A DNA stretch of 57,604 bases from Deltaproteobacteria bacterium (GTDB lineage: Bacteria; JAEEML01): the NCBI GenBank assembly GCA_016283195.1, contig JAEEML010000063.1, positions 1 to 57,604 on the forward strand. The letters run 5' to 3'. Shown one piece after another: positions 25,173 to 36,948 of this stretch; position 1 is the stretch's first letter; each line of letters starts with the position of its first letter. Made by a program: the position numbers and the translations under genes. The notes beneath the pieces were generated by a model, which was given only the letters and a program-made list of their open reading frames with translations, ran no database searches and was not told the origin of the DNA.

Positions 25173-26999
25173 TTATGGAAGTGGGGAAAGCGGAATATTT
25201 TCGTCTAAATCGGCCAGGGAGCCGTTTTTAACGCTCTCAATAAGGTTTAATGAAGTGTTTAATTTGCCGCTTATAATGACATTGTCGCCATTTTTAGCCA
25301 AAACTTTTACAGCCACTTGGTGGGCCTGCTTATCTTCGCCGCTCACCCAGAGGTAAGTTTTATTCTTTTGGCCTAAAAGGAGCTTTTGGGGAATGATGTA
25401 AAGCTCTTCTTTGGTTGCAAGCTCCAAAAAGAGCGGCCGGGACTCTTTGTATAGCGTCTCGGTAATATCTTGTATTTTTACGGCCAGTTCGTTATCTTCC
25501 ACCTTTTCTACAACGGCAGAAATCTTTTTAAAATCAGTTTCTTCTTTAATGAGCAGTGCGACACCCTGGCCAGGGGTATACTCTTTTAAAAGCTCTTCCG
25601 GCAGCTTAAAAGAGGCTCTTAGAAGAGTTGGATCGATGATGGTTAGAGCCGGGTTTGCCGCTTCCTGGCCGGGGGCGATGGCAATTTTCTCAATGAGGCC
25701 GCTTATGGGGGCGGTGAGTACCTTGTTTTTGTAATCAGCGCCGCTTACCAAAGTATCAAACTCTTTTTGCGCGGCATACTCGCGTTTTTTGGCTTGATTT
25801 AGATCATCGGCCAATTTTACTTTGAGCTTTTGCCCGGCAGCCAGATTTTTATTGGTTTTTGAGAGCTCTTTTTTGATTTTTTGTACAGAGGCGCGATTTT
25901 TGGAACTACGCCCGGCACTAAGCTCCTTTATTTTAGCCAGATCTTTGGCTTTTTTTTCGTTAAGAGCGCTTAGACGCTCTTCGTTGCGCTCATTGGCGGC
26001 ACTTATTTTGGCTAGATCTTTTTGGCTTATTACCAGCTTATTTTTGGCTTCGGCAAATGGCCGCTTTAGTGCCTCGTCCATGGTGAGAGCAGCCAAAAAG
26101 GCGCCTTTTTCCACCTTGGCTTCCGGGGCAACTTCGAGGGCTTCTACCTGGCCGTTTTCGCCAAATGAGAGGGCACTTTTTTGTATAGCGGTAATTTTAG
26201 CCGGCCACTCTTCGTTAAAAAGCGGAGCGGTGTAGCTTTCTATAATCCTCGTGCTGACGGTTAGAGGAGCAACTTCAGCTTTTTTTTGTTTACAAGCGAA
26301 AAAGTAATAAGCGCCGCCGGCTAAAATTAGGGCAATTATTATAGCCAGAAGAATATAAATTTTGGTTTTTGAACCATTTTTTTGGGCTACAGGCTGTTTA
26401 TATTCGGCAGTTTCGATAGTGGTTTCCGGCGTGCCGACGGCCGCAGCAATTTGTGGATAAATCTTAGTTACTTCGTTCCAGATGAATTTTAGCTCACCGC
26501 CGGTTGGCTCACTGCCTAAAATAGAAAGGTGGCCCAGCATGGTGAGGTGGCGTTGATCGCCCGGTGAGGCCTCTTTAAGCTCCAGAAAATAATCCTTTGC
26601 CTGGTCAAAAAAGCCTTGTTTTATTTGCAAAATAGCGCTTGTTAGCAGGCGCTCCTCTTCCGCCGGATCAATCGAAGGCTCAATAAGCACATCAACCGTT
26701 TCCGGCTCATGAGCGGCTGAATCATCGTCCAGGTGTGTTAAAAAGTTCATGGAATCCAGCTGGCTGATAAAGCGGGTGAGATCATCTTTGGTGAGTGCAA
26801 AGTGCAGCTCATCGTTCACCAATTTAATGATCTCCTCAAAGCCTTTTTGACCGTCCATCTGCTGGGCGATCATGTATTCCATCTCATAAAGGCGCGATTT
26901 GCTCTTAGTTAGTGGATCTTCTACTTGGTAATAGACGATTCCCTGTTCTTCTTCGCGCTTAGCTACAAGGTCTGTTCTAAAGCATGGTTTTTTGCTCAT
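25173..26999 (-). CDS. Membrane-fusion/HlyD-like protein with N-terminal cytoplasmic PqqD-like and TPR-like domains
   Basis: N-terminal FRTDL..YQVEDP..MDGQK..FISQLDSMNFL, a helical segment, one TM helix, then LSFGENGQVEALEV / coiled coil / LTAPISGLIEKI barrel-sandwich hybrid. Confidence 0.65.
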   Translation of the reverse strand: MSKKPCFRTDLVAKREEEQGIVYYQVEDPLTKSKSRLYEMEYMIAQQMDGQKGFEEIIKLVNDELHFALTKDDLTRFISQLDSMNFLTHLDDDSAAHEPETVDVLIEPSIDPAEEERLLTSAILQIKQGFFDQAKDYFLELKEASPGDQRHLTMLGHLSILGSEPTGGELKFIWNEVTKIYPQIAAAVGTPETTIETAEYKQPVAQKNGSKTKIYILLAIIIALILAGGAYYFFACKQKKAEVAPLTVSTRIIESYTAPLFNEEWPAKITAIQKSALSFGENGQVEALEVAPEAKVEKGAFLAALTMDEALKRPFAEAKNKLVISQKDLAKISAANERNEERLSALNEKKAKDLAKIKELSAGRSSKNRASVQKIKKELSKTNKNLAAGQKLKVKLADDLNQAKKREYAAQKEFDTLVSGADYKNKVLTAPISGLIEKIAIAPGQEAANPALTIIDPTLLRASFKLPEELLKEYTPGQGVALLIKEETDFKKISAVVEKVEDNELAVKIQDITETLYKESRPLFLELATKEELYIIPQKLLLGQKNKTYLWVSGEDKQAHQVAVKVLAKNGDNVIISGKLNTSLNLIESVKNGSLADLDENIPLSPLP

Positions 27000-27532: not shown

Positions 27533-28984
<1,452 letters not shown>

Positions 28985-29857
28985 CTAATTGCCTAAAGCA
29001 CCGGCGCCGCCGATAATATCCAGCAGCTCGGTGGTTACCGCCTCCTGGCGGGCTCTATTATAAGATAATAATAATTTTTCGCGCATTTCCGCTTCGTTAT
29101 GGGCAGCAGCTTCCATGGCATTCATGCGGGCGGCGTGCTCGCTGGCGCTGCTTTCCAAAAGAGTGCGCCAAAGATGATAAGCTAAATAAAGCGGAGCCAG
29201 TTTATCCAAAAATGTTTTGGAATCTGGCTCAAAAATATACTCATCGGCCGGAGTGGCCGCCTCCTGCTGCTCTACCGGCATAATGGGCAGGGCTTGCTTT
29301 ATGACAATACTTTGGTGGGCCATGCTCTCAAATTCATGATAGATGAGAAAGAGGGCGTCCATATCGTGTTTAATATAAGAGGCAGCAAAGCCATCGGCCA
29401 ATTCTGAAACTTTTTGATAAGTTAAATTTTCAAATACCCCCGGATAGTTATGCAAAAGTTCATAATTGTTATGGCGGAAATAGTCATAGCCTTTGCGGCC
29501 GATTAAGGCCAGCTCTATTTTTACCCCTTTAGCTTCTTCTTCTTTGATAAACTTTTCGGCCTCGCGCAGCAGATTGCTGTTAAAAGCGCCGCACATCCCG
29601 CGATCGGAGGTAATAACCACCAAAATGGCCTTTTTTATCTCGCGCTGCTCCATAAAGGGGTGCATGGTGTGAGTGCTATCGCGGGCCGAAACGCGAGCTA
29701 AAAGGTTTATCAGCTGCTCGCTGTAAGGCCTTGCGGCTATCAGAGTGCGCTGGGCTCTCCGGAAACGCACAGTAGAGACATGCTTCATGGCGTGAGTGAT
29801 TTTTTTCGTCGTTTCCAGCGAGCGGATGCGCTTTTTTATTTGTTGTAAACTACTCAC
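28985..29857 (-). CDS. atpG: ATP synthase F1 gamma subunit
   Basis: IKKRIRSL..TKKITHAM, TSDRGMCGAFN, SEHAARMNAM, YNRARQ..TTEL; GTG start. Confidence 0.96.
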   Translation of the reverse strand: MSSLQQIKKRIRSLETTKKITHAMKHVSTVRFRRAQRTLIAARPYSEQLINLLARVSARDSTHTMHPFMEQREIKKAILVVITSDRGMCGAFNSNLLREAEKFIKEEEAKGVKIELALIGRKGYDYFRHNNYELLHNYPGVFENLTYQKVSELADGFAASYIKHDMDALFLIYHEFESMAHQSIVIKQALPIMPVEQQEAATPADEYIFEPDSKTFLDKLAPLYLAYHLWRTLLESSASEHAARMNAMEAAAHNEAEMREKLLLSYNRARQEAVTTELLDIIGGAGALGN

Positions 29858-29860
29858 GGC

Positions 29861-31963
29861 CTAGCCCTTTAAAGCCAAAAAAGCATTTATATTTTGCCTG
29901 ATTATGGGTGCGAGTTCGGCTGTTAGCGCGCTAATATCGCTGCACTTATCAATGGCTTCCAAGAGATCTTTATGATTCTTCTCAAAATCATCGGTAAGAG
30001 CCTGGCAGAAGGCACCGACATCGGCCACTTCAATGGCTCTAAGGTAAATTTTGCCCGTTTCGCTGTCTTTTGTCATGGCGGCATAAAGTTGCAAAAGCTC
30101 TTTAGGCACGCTCATCGGCTGATATTTGGTTTGTTTTAAAACTTCCACCAGCCGCGCTCCTTCGGCCAGGCGCTCCTGGGTGGCTTTATCCAAATCGGTG
30201 CCGAATTGAGCAAAAGCCGCCAGGTCGTTGTATTTAGCCAAAGAGAGGCGCAGCGAACCGGCCAATTTTTTCATAGATTTGCGCTGGGCGGCACTACCTA
30301 CGCGGCTAACCGAAATACCCACATTGATAGCCGGGCGGTTGCCGGCGTAAAAAAGGTCGGCTTCCAAATATATCTGGCCATCGGTGATGGAGATAATATT
30401 AGTGGGAATATAGGCAGTTACATCGCCGGCCTGGGTCTCCACAATGGGCAGAGCGGTGAGTGAGCCGCCGCCCATCTTGTCACTCATTTTGGCTGCCCGC
30501 TCCAAAAGGCGGGAGTGCAAATAAAAGACATCGCCGGGAAAAGCTTCGCGGGCCGGGGGGCGGCGCAGGAGCAGGGCCAGTTGCCTATAGGCCACGGCGT
30601 GCTTGCTGAGGTCGTCATAAATAACCAGCGCATGGCCGCCGTTATCGCGATCTTCCTCGCCTATTGCTGTGCCGGTATATGGTGCCAGATATTGCAAAGT
30701 AGCCGGATCGGCAGCCGAAGCGGTTACTACAGTGGTATATTCCATAGCGCCGTTAGCTCTTAGCGTATCCACCACCCGGGCCACAGTGGAAAGTTTTTGG
30801 CCGATAGCCACATAAATGCAGTGAACACCCTGGCCCTTCTGGTTGATGATGGTATCAATGGCGATTGTGGTTTTACCGATTTGCCGATCGCCGATGATTA
30901 ACTGGCGCTGGCCGCGGCCGCTGGGGATCATGGCGTCAATGGCTTTAAGGCCCGTTTGCAAGGGCTCGCACACCGGCTGGCGTTTTACGATACCCGGAGC
31001 TTTAGACTCCATGGGGCGCGTTTTTTCGGCTTTTAGCGGCGGCAGGCCGTCTAAGGGCTCGCCCAGCGCGTTAATTACTCGGCCCCAGGTACATTTGCCC
31101 ACAGGCACCGAGGCGATGGTGCCGGTACGGCGCACCGTTTCACCCTCGGAAATTTTGGTGGAATCGCCCATAACGGCCACTCCAACGCCCGCTTCCTCAA
31201 TGCTCAGAGTTAGCCCTTTAACGCCGCTTTGAAATTCCACAAGCTCGCCCAGCATAACGTGCAAAAGACCATGTATTTTGGCAATGCCGTCGCCGGCCGA
31301 GATAACTGTACCCACTTCCGATACATCGTAGCTTTTAACCGGCCTAGCAATTTGCTCGCGCAAAATACTAATAATATCAGTAGTATTTACCTCAATGCTG
31401 CCGCTGGTGGAAGCCGTATATTCGGCGAGGTTTTGGCTGATGCGCTGTTTTAAACGCTCGGTTTGCCCCAAGATGGAATCATCTATCAAGAGATCACCCA
31501 GGTGCAATACCACGCCGGCGCAAAGTTCTGGTTTTACTTCCTCTTTGATTTCGATATGGCACTCTAAAATCTTTTCAAAATGCTCTCTTATAGCGCTTTT
31601 TTGCTCGCTGGTTAAGGCAAAGGCTGTTTCCACCTTAAGCTCAAGAATATTATTCAGCTCATGGTGGCGCTTTAAGAGGGCTGGCACAAAGAGTTCTAGT
31701 TTTTGAATGGTGTTATCATCCAAAAGAAGAGTAATAATATCAGTAACTTCTTTGCTGCTGCCGAGCTCTTTGGCTATAGTCTCGATGAGCATTTCGCGGC
31801 TTTTTAAACTGAGGCGCGGATCTTCCACCATGGAGAGAATTTCCGGGTCATGTAAAAGCACTTGCCATTTTTTTAGCTCATCCAGAGCAACTTGCAATTT
31901 TAAATTGGCTTTACCAATGGTGGCTAAAAAGTCATTGGCATAGACCTCTATACTTTTCATCAA
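29861..31963 (-). CDS. atpA: ATP synthase delta-alpha fusion protein (AtpH-AtpA)
   Basis: First ~176 aa are delta/OSCP-like ([32 protein letters not shown]); a short linker leads into full alpha ([37 protein letters not shown]) in one 700-aa frame. Confidence 0.92.
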
Positions 31964-32544
31964 AATTCACCTTTTACGGCTTTGGCAATTTCCTGCCCGG
32001 CGCTGCCGTTTAAATCGCTTAAAAGATTATCAATTAGCTTTTGGTGTATAACTTGGCTGTTTTCCTTAGAAATTTTTCTTTTGGCATCGTCAAAGAGGCT
32101 TTTTAAAAATTCGGCGAAAATCTCTTTGTTTAGCTCAATTTTTTCGGCCAAAACGCGATCTTGATATTCGCCTTCGAGGAGTTTTTTAATAATTTCCAGC
32201 TGTTCTTTCTCATCCAGGTGGATAGCTTCTATCTCTGCCTTGAGCTTTTCCTGGAAGCCGGCCACCTTGTCATCGACGCGTGCCAGTTCTTCTTTGGCCT
32301 TAAGCGCGTTTGCTTCAGCATTTTTCAGGCGGGCGGCGGAGCTATTTATGTCGCTTTCTATTTGCTCGTGGCGGCTTTTAAAAAACTCGCGGAATTTATG
32401 GCGGCCGAAATACCAAATAATAAAAGCGATGAGCGCCAGATTAAAGGCCGACCAACAGGTTTTCCACCAGGGGAAAGGCTCAGCGGCATTGGTTAGCAGC
32501 AAATTTCCGGCCTCGGCGGTCAGCATAGTGGCTAAACTATTCAT
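31960..32544 (-). CDS. atpF: ATP synthase F0 subunit b
   Basis: TM helix ([15 protein letters not shown]), FFKSRHEQI, long coiled coil; operon position. Confidence 0.85.
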
Positions 32545-32972
32545 GTGGCATCACCTTCCTGGCGGCTTAGTGATTTAGCTAGTAAGTCTACTAGATTGCT
32601 GCGGCCTGAAGCCAAATCATTGCGGGTTTTGGCGGCGTAAGTGGTGAGCTCATTGTTGGCTTTCTCTAGCCTTTTAATATGGGCTTCTTGTAGTGCCTGG
32701 CGGCCAGTTTGCAATTCGCCGCGCGTGAGCACAATTTCATTTTGCCGTTTAAGGCTCATCTCTTGCAATTTTTCATCTAAGATGGCAGCCGATTTATCGC
32801 TTATCTGCTTAGCTTCCTGCTCCAAAAGAGCGGCTTTGCCCTGAGCGCCCTCAATAAGGGCCTCGCGCTCCAAAATGGCGCGCAAAAATGGGCGGGCCAG
32901 AATGCCGGCGCCGGCAGCCAAAGCAGCTATGATGATGACAAGCTGCATAATTACCGTAACATCAAGATCCAT
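32541..32972 (-). CDS. ATP synthase F0 subunit b'
   Basis: MDLDVTVIMQLV TM segment, RPFLRAILERE, coiled coil; first gene of the operon. Confidence 0.82.
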   Translation of the reverse strand: MDLDVTVIMQLVIIIAALAAGAGILARPFLRAILEREALIEGAQGKAALLEQEAKQISDKSAAILDEKLQEMSLKRQNEIVLTRGELQTGRQALQEAHIKRLEKANNELTTYAAKTRNDLASGRSNLVDLLAKSLSRQEGDAT

Positions 32973-33102: not shown

Positions 33103-36100
33103 TTATTCAAACATTTCCACTTTGAGATCGTCGATGGCCAGGCCATTGCCGTTGGAAAGTTTGGGCGCATTCCAATGAAGAATGAAATAGTTGCCAGCAG
33201 GGATATTGATGCCTTCCAAAGTAGTAGTGCGTTCGGTACGGTTTGCTGCCAAATTGCCATTCAAAGTAGTACCATTACTTACTGTAGTATTTACAGGCGT
33301 AATATTGAGATCGGTTAATTTGTTTGTGCTGGCGTCTGGTATTGTAGTCGGCTTTTCATCTACAATGTCATAAGTACAACTAAAGACACTATTTCCGCTT
33401 CTTTTACGCCAGTGCTCGTTCATAAAAGAAACAACCACTTTTGTTACCGTTTTGCTACTATCATTTTTGATGGCTACAGCAAAGGCACCGCCATAACTTC
33501 CTGATGTATAAGCACCAAGAGAACGATCACTATCATTGGTTTCGCCAAAATTATAGAGCCCTCCTGTTGAAGATGTATCTTTATATAAATAAATGTTTTT
33601 GGGATTAGTAAACCAACCTGGCAAGGTGGAATCATTTACAAATAAGATATCGCCGCTTGAGCCCAAAGCGTCAAAATCTTCCGCATAGGTGACCAGCGGT
33701 TCATTACTGCCCTGGGCGGCAGCGGTATATACTTCTATCTCTTTAGCCTCGCAGCGGTCTAGCTCAAAGCGCAGCAAATATTTGAGCGTCTTGGTGCCGT
33801 CAAACTCGGTGCTATAAATAACAGATAACATATCGTTACTTGGTGTAGCTAGATCACTTTCCACATCGTTCCAGTCTATGCCGCTCTTTTCGCGCACTAC
33901 TTGCAAGCTCTTCACAGCCGAATTTGCCGGGGCCATCAGATCAACGGCTACCATGCCGCTTGCAACTTGTACTTCCCAGATATCAGGATCGGTTATTTCC
34001 TCAATATTCTTGGCAAAATCACCGCACATATCGCTGACGGTAATCATCATTGGGACAGCAACATTGAGAGCATTTATGTCAAACATACCATCGGTATCGC
34101 AGTATTTCCAACCTGTGCCCTTGTCATTCGAGGCCATGAAGTAGAGGAGATATTCACCCTTAGAGAGGCCGGTAAAGGTGGCACTGGCTATGCCTTCTGC
34201 GATAGTGGCATTTTTGCAATCAGCCGCTGCAACATCTATATTGTTCATATCTACCATACAGGCTTTGGCCACCACATAATCGGCCGGCTCAATTTTGGCG
34301 AGAGCGGTAAAGGAGCTGCCGTCAAGAACATCCACAGTAACCACATCGGTTGTAATTTGGCAGGTAGTAATAGCCGGATTATCCACGCAATTTTCACCTT
34401 CCACATGCTGATTGTTAGCGCAGGCGATAAAGTCGTGGTTACCCAGGGAGCTAAAGACTTCTTGAGTACATGCCGCATCGGAAACCAGCCATTCATCGGC
34501 AAAGTCGGCCTCTCTGACAAAGGTTGCCGAAGCTTTATAGCCGGGAGCGCGAATAACCCGCTTATCGACAAAATTCCAATAAGTATCGCTGCCGCCATAG
34601 ACATCAACCAGCGTCTCGCCTTTGAATAGAGCATAGCGGCCTTTACCGGCAACGCTGATGGAACCGGAAATAATTTCAGATTCATAATAGTATGCCGCAT
34701 TGTTCTTTTGGGCAAATACCATGGCCTGACCGGGTTCTATAGTCAGGCTGCTAAGGTTACTTGCGGCAGTGCCGTTTATGGTATAAGAGCCGACTATTGT
34801 CCAGGCTGTGGCTGTGGCACTTTGGGTTCTTATGGACCAGCCATCGAGGGAGATAGCTTTGGCGCAGGCATTGTAAATTTCCAGATATTTGGGGCCGCCT
34901 GAGCAGTCACTATCCACCACTTCGCTGATGAAGAGATCATCGGAAGCGCAGTCGTTGCCCTGCTTTAATACGCAATCAAGGCCGTCTTCCTGTATCATGT
35001 AGCCATCGTTTTCGCACTCTATATCGCAATATGGCACCGGGCCCCATTGGTTGGTACCAGGCAAAACGGTGACATATTTTTTCTGAGCAATTATTGTGGC
35101 ATGTTCTGGCTCAAAATCGCTATTGCAATCGGCTAGATATTTGGTTTGGCACTTGCCGTTAAGTTCAGCATAGCCTTCATTGCAAGTGATAGTACATTTA
35201 GGTGCTGCTTCCCAAACACCATCAATATAGTGAATAGTTACCAAGACGCCGTTATTGGCTACACCACCTGAAGGTGTATCTACATGCTTGCACTCAACTT
35301 GTTTTTCATTAATGCAGCTATTATTTTCGTTCGCATATTCCGGCAGACATTCCCAGACGCAATCTTTGGCCGGCTCATATACCCACTCATCGTTTTCATA
35401 GCCGATTACCTTGAGTTCCACCTTGGTGGAGGTGGCGTTTTCCGGAGCTACATCGGTGCAATATTTTACTTCCGGTTCGTTTAAAGCGCAGACCTCGTGG
35501 GTGTAAACGCGGCTACCGGTGCAGCCTACGGCGCATTTGGCCGGCTCTTCCCAGAGGCCGTTTACATAATGGATAGTGACAAGTACATCTGTTGCCATGT
35601 CGCCATATTCCGGCACCACTAAAGAGCTGCTGTCGCAGGGAACTTCTTTTTCATTGGCTAGACATTCTATGCCTTCGGCGTGCTCACCGGGGGCGCAATC
35701 GGTCATGGCATGGTGGCCGATAGAGGCGGTACCTTCGGCATCGCAAGCTATGGGCGAAAGTTCCCAGACATCGCTAAAGCCGTCTTCATCGGCAAAAGGC
35801 ACAGCGGCTCTCTGGCCGGGTTTTCTAATGACTTTTTTCTCGGCATAATTCCAGTATTTATCGGTGCCGCTGACATCTTCTTCGCCATAAATATCAATGA
35901 GTTTGTCGCCTTTAAAGAGGCCGATGCGATCGTCGCCGTTTATGCCCGGTTGAGAGTGGATATCGGCTGATATATCAAGGCCGAAAGTGCTGAGACCGCC
36001 ACCGATGGTGAGCGTGGAACCGGCTTTAATAATAATGTTTTTAAGAGAAGAATTATTGGTAGTGATATTGGTCCATTGGGTGTTTTCGTTGGTTTGCATT

Positions 36101-36948
36101 TTGAGTGTATAATCGCTGAGATCGATATCGCTGTCGCAGTCGTTATAGAGCTCTATAAAGCGGCTACCTGTTTTGTTGCCGGTGCAGCCTTCAAAAATTT
36201 CGCTAATAAAAACAGCTCTATTGCTGCATTCACCGGCGGCTAATTCGCGGCAGTAAGTGCCATCGGCGCTTAATCTATGATCATCGTCGCACTCAAATGC
36301 GCAATTATCCGCTACCCAAGAGGAACCGTCCCAAACGGTGGGCTTTTCGGCTGAGATGGCGATGGCAAATTGGGGCAAGTTGGCATCCGAGCAGGGGAGT
36401 TTATCGGGAGCGCCGCCGATACGCTCACAATTTTCGTCAGCATTATCGGTAAAGCCGTCGTTACAGCCGATGGGGCATTCCGGGCGAATATCCCAGCCAT
36501 GCTCTTCGCTGTAGTTGAGGGTTACCATGGTATCATCTTTGTAATAACCGTTGGGCACTAAGTACCCTTCAGGTACTTTGCAGGAAATAGTGATAGAGTT
36601 TAAGCATTCCTGGCCGTCATCATAGGTGGCAAAGCCGCTGTCACATTCGCAGGTACCGGCTACGCAGGAGGCATTAGCGCCGCAGTTTTTATTGTCACAA
36701 GGATCGCCGGGGCCGGGGCCAACATCGCTTTGGCTGTCGTTATCACTTTTAGCGTCAGCATCACTTTGGGCGTCATTATCGCTTTGGGCATCGTCGCTTT
36801 TGCCATCATGGGGATCGGTTTTGGAATCACTAGGTTTGACTACCGGCTCGTCATCATTAGGTTTGGGAACCGGATCCGAGCAGGCGGAAAGAGCGAGAGC
36901 GCTGCTAAGTATAAAAAGACCCAAAAACCTCAGTGCTACCTTTTTCAT
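33103..36948 (-). CDS. Large surface lipoprotein with Cys-rich repeats and two lamin-tail-like domains
   Basis: LSAC lipobox, QSD linker, EGF-like unit, six ~55-aa Cys/Trp repeats, two LTD-like domains (VFISEIFEG..FIELYN; LFISEVVD..YLEIYN), C-terminal beta domain ending LAIDDLKV. Confidence 0.85.
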   Translation of the reverse strand: MKKVALRFLGLFILSSALALSACSDPVPKPNDDEPVVKPSDSKTDPHDGKSDDAQSDNDAQSDADAKSDNDSQSDVGPGPGDPCDNKNCGANASCVAGTCECDSGFATYDDGQECLNSITISCKVPEGYLVPNGYYKDDTMVTLNYSEEHGWDIRPECPIGCNDGFTDNADENCERIGGAPDKLPCSDANLPQFAIAISAEKPTVWDGSSWVADNCAFECDDDHRLSADGTYCRELAAGECSNRAVFISEIFEGCTGNKTGSRFIELYNDCDSDIDLSDYTLKMQTNENTQWTNITTNNSSLKNIIIKAGSTLTIGGGLSTFGLDISADIHSQPGINGDDRIGLFKGDKLIDIYGEEDVSGTDKYWNYAEKKVIRKPGQRAAVPFADEDGFSDVWELSPIACDAEGTASIGHHAMTDCAPGEHAEGIECLANEKEVPCDSSSLVVPEYGDMATDVLVTIHYVNGLWEEPAKCAVGCTGSRVYTHEVCALNEPEVKYCTDVAPENATSTKVELKVIGYENDEWVYEPAKDCVWECLPEYANENNSCINEKQVECKHVDTPSGGVANNGVLVTIHYIDGVWEAAPKCTITCNEGYAELNGKCQTKYLADCNSDFEPEHATIIAQKKYVTVLPGTNQWGPVPYCDIECENDGYMIQEDGLDCVLKQGNDCASDDLFISEVVDSDCSGGPKYLEIYNACAKAISLDGWSIRTQSATATAWTIVGSYTINGTAASNLSSLTIEPGQAMVFAQKNNAAYYYESEIISGSISVAGKGRYALFKGETLVDVYGGSDTYWNFVDKRVIRAPGYKASATFVREADFADEWLVSDAACTQEVFSSLGNHDFIACANNQHVEGENCVDNPAITTCQITTDVVTVDVLDGSSFTALAKIEPADYVVAKACMVDMNNIDVAAADCKNATIAEGIASATFTGLSKGEYLLYFMASNDKGTGWKYCDTDGMFDINALNVAVPMMITVSDMCGDFAKNIEEITDPDIWEVQVASGMVAVDLMAPANSAVKSLQVVREKSGIDWNDVESDLATPSNDMLSVIYSTEFDGTKTLKYLLRFELDRCEAKEIEVYTAAAQGSNEPLVTYAEDFDALGSSGDILFVNDSTLPGWFTNPKNIYLYKDTSSTGGLYNFGETNDSDRSLGAYTSGSYGGAFAVAIKNDSSKTVTKVVVSFMNEHWRKRSGNSVFSCTYDIVDEKPTTIPDASTNKLTDLNITPVNTTVSNGTTLNGNLAANRTERTTTLEGINIPAGNYFILHWNAPKLSNGNGLAIDDLKVEMFE

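Follow-up and report, generated by a model that had tools for sequence, protein, structure and literature searches.

An uncultured gut bacterium encodes a full-length delta subunit and a complete alpha subunit of F1Fo ATP synthase in one 77-kDa chain, and the genome offers no other alpha or delta for its complete F-type enzyme. The gene lies in the window, which is the whole 57,604-nt stretch of DNA analyzed here (contig JAEEML010000063.1, assembly GCA_016283195.1, Deltaproteobacteria bacterium). Sequence comparison confirmed that the fusion is genuine and inherited, not an assembly error. Delta–alpha fusions are already known as a kind; what sets this one apart is the independent origin, as judged from an alpha tree, and an unshortened N-domain with six predicted helices. 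We propose that the enzyme would hold more than one peripheral stalk on its tethered deltas, and we give this reading as a whole a probability of about 45%.

The ion-to-ATP ratio is a basic quantity in bioenergetics. Reports of 2025 described its increase by added stalks and a-subunits, by design in Bacillus PS3 (PMC12229609) and in nature in Chloroflexus (PMC12002316). Natural delta–alpha fusions are obvious candidates for multi-stalk enzymes. Ueno et al. (Nat Commun 2025, PMC12229609) concluded that the delta N-domain limits the enzyme to one stalk. The window enzyme offers a clean test of this limit, as three copies are enforced and the N-domain is neither trimmed nor lost.

The fused gene and its operon

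An open frame runs without interruption from 29861 to 31963 on the minus strand (700 aa, first codon TTG). Its second codon is ATG (31960-31958), which has one base in common with the TGA stop of the b gene (TGATG) and is preceded by AAGGTGA 8-13 nt upstream. Because of this ATG, the upstream motif, and a 699-aa database copy (P0001), the gene is best given as 29861..31960. The genes of the operon are as follows.

32541..32972, minus strand: b'-like stalk subunit gene; 143 aa, one N-terminal hydrophobic helix; ORF without Pfam match
31960..32544, minus strand: b stalk subunit gene; 194 aa, PF00430 (ATP-synt_B) at 27.3 bits, slightly below the 28-bit cut-off
29861..31960, minus strand: fused atpH-atpA gene; 699 aa plus TAG stop
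28985..29857, minus strand: gamma subunit gene; PF00231 (E 1.5e-92), GTG start 3 nt past the TAG of the fused gene
27533..28975, minus strand: beta subunit gene; PF00006, PF02874, PF22919
27045..27527, minus strand: epsilon subunit gene; 160 aa, PF02823

The minus-strand order b', b, delta–alpha, gamma, beta, epsilon is that of a canonical F1 operon. The first gene is probably b'-like, judging from its position ahead of b and its coiled-coil-like sequence. Its end overlaps the start of b by 4 nt, and start–stop overlaps link the b', b, and delta–alpha genes. Ordinary operons, too, often show overlaps of this type between the b and delta genes. The long epsilon subunit has an extended C-terminal region.

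Two other genes flank the operon on the same strand. Directly upstream, the 1281-aa product of 33103-36948 looks secreted and combines cysteine-rich repeats with two Lamin Tail Domains (PF00932, E 2.7e-25). Downstream of epsilon, the product of 25173-26999 (608 aa) matches HlyD_3 weakly (E 1.2e-5) and contains a long charged coiled-coil region.

Domains and predicted fold of the fused chain

Pfam analysis of the 700-aa frame found OSCP at residues 13-174 (profile positions 9-171 of 172, E 3.7e-25, 89.4 bits against a cut-off of 22.3). It was followed by the three alpha domains, ATP-synt_ab_N (PF02874) at 214-281, ATP-synt_ab (PF00006) at 338-553, and ATP-synt_ab_C (PF00306) at 560-683, with E-values of 2.1e-13, 6.6e-78, and 5.7e-33, respectively. 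The P-loop GDRQIGKT was read in the alpha part. The chain thus has the beta-barrel, P-loop domain, C-terminal helical domain, and operon position by which AtpA is recognized. The sequence-only reading had described one 700-aa frame holding a complete delta, a linker written as 13 residues, and a complete alpha. The Pfam domains, the uninterrupted frame, and the relatives described below bear this out. Numbered from the ATG, the parts of the chain are as follows.

31652..31960, minus strand: delta N-terminal domain; aa 1-103, six-helix bundle (predicted by AlphaFold 2, AF2), OSCP profile covered from position 9
31409..31651, minus strand: delta C-terminal domain; aa 104-184, b-binding alpha/beta domain (AF2)
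31385..31408, minus strand: linker; aa 185-192, about 8 residues, holding ATT (31396-31394) at the ancestral alpha start column
29864..31396, minus strand: alpha subunit part; aa 189-699, N-terminal helix 193-205, beta-barrel, P-loop domain, and C-terminal domain (Pfam and AF2)

The AF2 model was built from an 82-row alignment and reached a mean pLDDT of 75.2 and a pTM of 0.51. It predicted the two-domain fold of delta with pLDDT of about 72-89. The N-domain helices were placed at 4-17, 22-36, 39-45, 52-66, 70-81, and 85-102 (block pLDDT 80-89), and the C-domain was predicted to consist of strands 105-112, 135-142, 150-154, and 157-160 with helices 118-132 and 163-184. The lowest value in the N-terminal 330 residues, a mean pLDDT of 57, belonged to the 10-residue block aa 181-190, which includes most of the linker. 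The three best Foldseek matches of the model were chains I, K, and J of 9jc1, the engineered PS3 enzyme. Their rmsd was about 20 Å, indicating that the inter-domain geometry of the model is unreliable, and the placement of delta relative to alpha was not used.

Fused relatives from other assemblies

Two relatives from other assemblies are fused in frame, with no stop codon in the linker, as the sequence-only reading had proposed to check. P0002 (699 aa) is 75% identical over residues 1-260, and P0197 (700 aa) is 50% identical over the first 288 residues. Both contain the same four Pfam domains, and both carry many substitutions in and near the linker, which is 69% identical to that of P0002 and 12.5% identical to that of P0197. 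At the column of the old alpha initiator Met, the window protein has Ile, P0002 has Thr, and P0197 has Met. A diverged linker together with a mutated start column points to loss of a stop codon followed by drift, unlike an assembly error. The N-domain is 30% identical to that of P0197 and the C-domain 60%, indicating that the N-domain diverges faster.

The only alpha and delta of the genome

The genome consists of 190 contigs and is reported to be 100% complete and 4.18% contaminated. Profile searches of all 190 contigs found no unfused atpA or atpH. A second, unfused atpA had been named by the sequence-only reading as a thing to look for. The OSCP profile had one match, the fused gene. A typical delta/OSCP is a separate polypeptide occurring once per enzyme; here no stop separates delta from alpha, and the genome has no other OSCP match. 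As the fusion is the sole copy, three delta domains per F1 follow, as the same reading had expected.

PF00006 had five matches in the genome: the fused gene, beta, a fragment on contig C105, and the A and B subunits of a V/A-type ATPase on contig C9. The C105 fragment lies at a contig end and reads like a FliI/T3SS-type ATPase from its sequence. A Ser/Thr protein-kinase-like gene, recognized by its motifs, adjoins it (L004:1-1230). The genes of the V/A-type ATPase are found on C9 and C16 (L005, L006, L065-L068). Its two-hairpin c/K gene gave matches of equal score on two contigs, a sign that a stretch may be duplicated or was assembled redundantly.

The genome has only one a-subunit gene, alone on contig C18 (L063:1477-2241), and the F-type c gene is alone on contig C1 (L064:1360-1698). 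Both are surrounded by unrelated genes, apart from the F1 operon and from each other, so that their dosage can be set independently of F1. The c subunit has 112 aa (PF00137) with a signal-like N-terminal extension, Q in helix 1 (AIGQAK), and ESLVLY in helix 2. The rule for a Na+ site given in a preprint is E[STQ][STQ]xxY (bioRxiv 10.64898/2026.10.01.756066). By this rule the c subunit would have a nearly complete Na+ site, lacking the E+2 ligand only, and Na+ or mixed coupling is possible.

Distribution and origin of delta–alpha fusions

This genome is the sole member of its phylum in the collection searched. No uninterrupted delta–alpha frame was found in 40 genomes of other phyla. Five of these 40 have delta and alpha in one frame with one stop codon between them, and a sixth has two stops; in such genomes the fusion is one point mutation away where a single stop remains. 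Among 35 loci fetched from species genomes, one was fused (L039, a Clostridia metagenome-assembled genome, MAG). L034, a Spirochaetota MAG that appeared fused by tblastn, was rejected, as it has a stop after delta and its alpha is frame-shifted.

A profile made from six fused N-terminal parts (A1) was searched among proteins longer than 505 aa. It gave 329 matches at E <= 1e-10, and all of the best 120 listed have OSCP and alpha domains and a length of 599-700 aa. Few matches are named; these are entries called 'F0F1 ATP synthase subunit alpha' of Eubacterium sp. and Lachnospiraceae. In a search of 1.84 billion cluster representatives, the 150 best rows included 57 that cross the junction, most of them fragments: 9 include the N-domain, 4 start part-way, and 44 start at the C-domain. 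A delta-only search for longer proteins returned only P0001 and P0002, the word index being too insensitive for diverged delta. An OSCP survey of 401 diverse genomes had matches in 288 and showed no frame of at least 600 aa among the 150 best of 298 rows. Together, the searches found hundreds of delta–alpha proteins, mostly from gut Clostridia.

The alpha parts of 61 fused and 46 unfused proteins (107 rows) were placed in a FastTree tree. The tree omits P0260 and P0334, in which the motif was not located, as well as 12 of the 35 loci for lack of a suitable frame. The window protein, P0002, and P0197 formed one clade (100% support) inside a group with 44 unfused alphas. The other 58 fused rows and two unfused ones formed a separate group across a split with 100% SH-like support. 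Well-supported branches forced at least two changes of state. On this tree, the fusion of the window arose independently of the Clostridial fusions, at least twice overall. Two or more origins in unrelated lineages of gut anaerobes favor a selective benefit over accident.

Three fusions of 594-609 aa (P0199, P0255, and P0260) have no N-domain and match OSCP profile positions 98-172. P0199 (609 aa, delta C-domain only) nests among the full-length fusions of the Clostridia clade, indicating that in that lineage fusion came first and N-domain loss later.

Comparison with known systems

The closest structural counterpart is the engineered enzyme of Bacillus PS3 (PDB 9JC1), in which the delta N-domain was deleted and the C-domain was fused to alpha (PMC12229609). 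In both, a short linker connects the end of delta with the beginning of alpha, and delta does not occur as a separate chain. Among PDB sequences, chain 9jc1_I matched residues 1-260 best (E 9.9e-22), in an alignment unbroken from the delta C-domain into alpha, with residues 113-259 aligned to the engineered chain. The deletion in the construct took out delta residues 2-104; the window protein retains the six-helix N-domain, and its linker exceeds the engineered GSGG by about 9 residues. The stalk number was measured in the construct. The PS3 fusion was reported to be stable as one chain, to fill free docking sites spontaneously, and to bind up to three stalks with a-subunits, about two on average; its H+/ATP was 5.9 versus 3.1 (PMC12229609).

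The same report mentions a natural delta–alpha fusion without N-domain in Acidaminococcus fermentans and two UniProt entries (PMC12229609). A preprint mentions 'the delta-subunit or only its C-terminal part' at the alpha N-terminus, with shortening (bioRxiv 10.64898/2026.10.01.756066). The sequence-only reading had taken b–delta as the familiar fusion. This premise failed, as natural delta–alpha fusions are in print in these two sources and abundant in databases. Its provision that the fusion might already be described for this lineage holds for the kind of fusion but not for the lineage. Within the literature searched, we found no experimental study of any natural delta–alpha fusion.

Proteins of the A. 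fermentans type (P0199, P0255, and P0260) are, like the window protein, natural in-frame fusions in anaerobes that replace free delta. They have only the delta C-domain, whereas the N-domain is present and predicted to be folded in the window protein. P0199 and P0255 belong to the Clostridia-side alpha clade, and the window protein lies elsewhere. The full-length fusions of gut Clostridia (about 670-680 aa; Eubacterium sp., Lachnospiraceae, and L039) share the domain order and both delta domains with the window protein. However, their alpha parts lie across the 100%-supported split, and their delta identity is 15-22%. In those checked by Pfam (P0004, P0014, and L039), the OSCP match starts at profile position 23-24, compared with 9-10 in the window clade, indicating a shorter N-domain. 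Their linker is about 8 residues shorter.

In the F1Fo enzyme of Chloroflexus aurantiacus, two stalks and two a-subunits go with two deltas that dimerize through shortened N-domains of four helices (PMC12002316). It too is a natural enzyme of the F type in which F1 bears more than one delta, and it demonstrates that nature can make additional stalks and a-subunits work. Its delta is free, in two copies, with a four-helix N-domain, whereas in the window protein delta is fused, with three copies enforced and six helices predicted. The mycobacterial b–delta fusion (PMC5709465; PDB 7jg5 family) likewise joins a peripheral-stalk subunit to an operon neighbor. Its partner is b, and delta stays at one per enzyme, whereas b and b' are separate genes in the window. 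The 2017 operon survey, in the portion available, mentions only the b–delta fusion and gives the N-ATPase operon as beta-epsilon-a-c-b-alpha-gamma, without delta (PMC5709465). The window operon has delta and the canonical F1 order, and it does not belong to the N-ATPases.

One peripheral stalk or several

In the reading we favor, the 77-kDa chain would serve as the sole delta and alpha, so that each F1 head would carry three covalently tethered deltas. These very probably stay attached. Each alpha N-terminal helix would fold back on its own delta C-domain, as in engineered PS3; such docking in cis is suggested by the linker, short and flexible, and by the unbroken alignment with the engineered chain. 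Each alpha would thus offer a docking site for a b/b' stalk, making three sites, and the covalent tether would make the anchoring role of the delta N-domain redundant. Such redundancy fits a domain that diverges faster, is shorter in the Clostridia fusions examined, and has been lost from P0199. The enzyme would then hold more than one stalk, each with an a-subunit, in at least part of the population, and it would use more ions per ATP, which would suit a low-energy gut anaerobe. The use of more than one stalk, even by part of the population, is a tentative conclusion. Cis docking, extra stalks, and the physiological benefit are steps that we infer from the comparisons above.

What speaks against several stalks is the N-domain itself. 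It is full size with six predicted helices, neither deleted as in PS3 nor reduced to four helices as in Chloroflexus. Three N-domain bundles would have to fit on top of F1, where crowding could close off the extra sites, so that extra stalk binding depends on the room for three full-size N-domains on the crown.

The fusion could instead be intact in an ordinary one-stalk F1Fo, in which one N-domain caps the crown, one C-domain holds b/b', and two deltas are idle; the fusion would have arisen by stop-codon loss and been kept as harmless or for a guaranteed supply of delta. We consider this a serious possibility, if a somewhat doubtful one. All three members of the clade keep the full-size six-helix N-domain, to which the published accounts assign the one-stalk rule (PMC12229609, PMC12002316). 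The genome has a single a-subunit gene, and the fusion is mutationally easy, given the 5 of 40 other-phylum genomes that are one stop codon away and the sixth with two stops. On the other hand, the free sites of the engineered enzyme were filled spontaneously, with about two stalks on average (PMC12229609). The N-domain evolves faster and is shortened or lost in other fused lineages, which suggests that it no longer sets the architecture. In addition, at least two independent lineages and dozens of clusters at 50% identity have retained the fusion.

The multi-stalk reading has a strong form, in which full-length deltas form a three-fold cap with up to three b/b' stalks, each with an a-subunit, around one c-ring. 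We regard this form as unlikely. If it were true, the ions per ATP would be doubled or tripled, and the enzyme would be a natural multi-stalk F-type enzyme without loss or shortening of the N-domain, unlike PS3 and Chloroflexus. The N-domain would then not be what sets the stalk number.

The old alpha start and the linker

Alternatively, a protease acting on the linker, or initiation inside the gene close to the old alpha start, might split the chain and restore an ordinary 3:1 enzyme with free alpha and some free delta. Low model confidence (pLDDT 57, block aa 181-190) predicts a flexible linker, and P0197 has Met at the old start column. In the window, ATT (31396-31394) aligns with the initiator Met column of unfused alphas. 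AUU is a rare start codon in bacteria, known from infC, and an AUU start is possible on this precedent.

Initiation at this codon appears unlikely from the alignment and the upstream sequence. No AGG/GAGG-type motif was found in the 30 nt before ATT, whereas AAGGT/GAGGT precedes the start by 7-14 nt in five of the six operon genes. The column is Ile, Thr, and Met in the three proteins, which implies that no start is needed there; in particular, P0002 has Thr. The 12.5% identity to the P0197 linker indicates that the linker holds no conserved cleavage or initiation signal. The sequence-only reading had noted ATT at the usual alpha start without a Shine–Dalgarno (SD) motif, and the alignment column and the 30-nt scan agree with it. 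Two internal starts further downstream, TTG (in ISILRE) and GTG (in SEVG), were rejected, as neither has an SD motif at a usable distance. The engineered fusion, moreover, was stable as one chain (PMC12229609). Splitting of the chain is therefore quite improbable in our judgment. The consequences listed by the sequence-only reading, namely spare domains, processing, internal initiation, and extra stalk contacts, were the right ones to weigh.

Sequencing reads at the junction

Identical pieces of the gene were present in two animal gut metagenome runs. The best sequencing run held 0.25 of the sampled words, and none held half or more. An RNA run (X13) contained only pieces less than 90% alike and one in the 95-99% band; 98% of the compared records ran on unlike, and the run gave no evidence of transcription. 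That the fusion is an artefact of assembly or sequencing, through a stop codon lost or an indel gained in a MAG of 190 contigs with 4.18% estimated contamination and no run holding half of the sampled words, is hardly credible, as two diverged relatives from other assemblies keep the frame open despite many substitutions around the linker, the old start codon is itself mutated, and a contig from reads crosses the junction without an indel.

That contig comes from run X2, is 250 bases long, and is identical over 31342-31591, the place where the sequence-only reading had asked for reads. Run X1 gave a 231-base contig identical over 31123-31353. X1 and X2 are two of the four public runs compared, animal gut metagenomes of low depth that may include the source sample, and they lend weak read support to the fused sequence.
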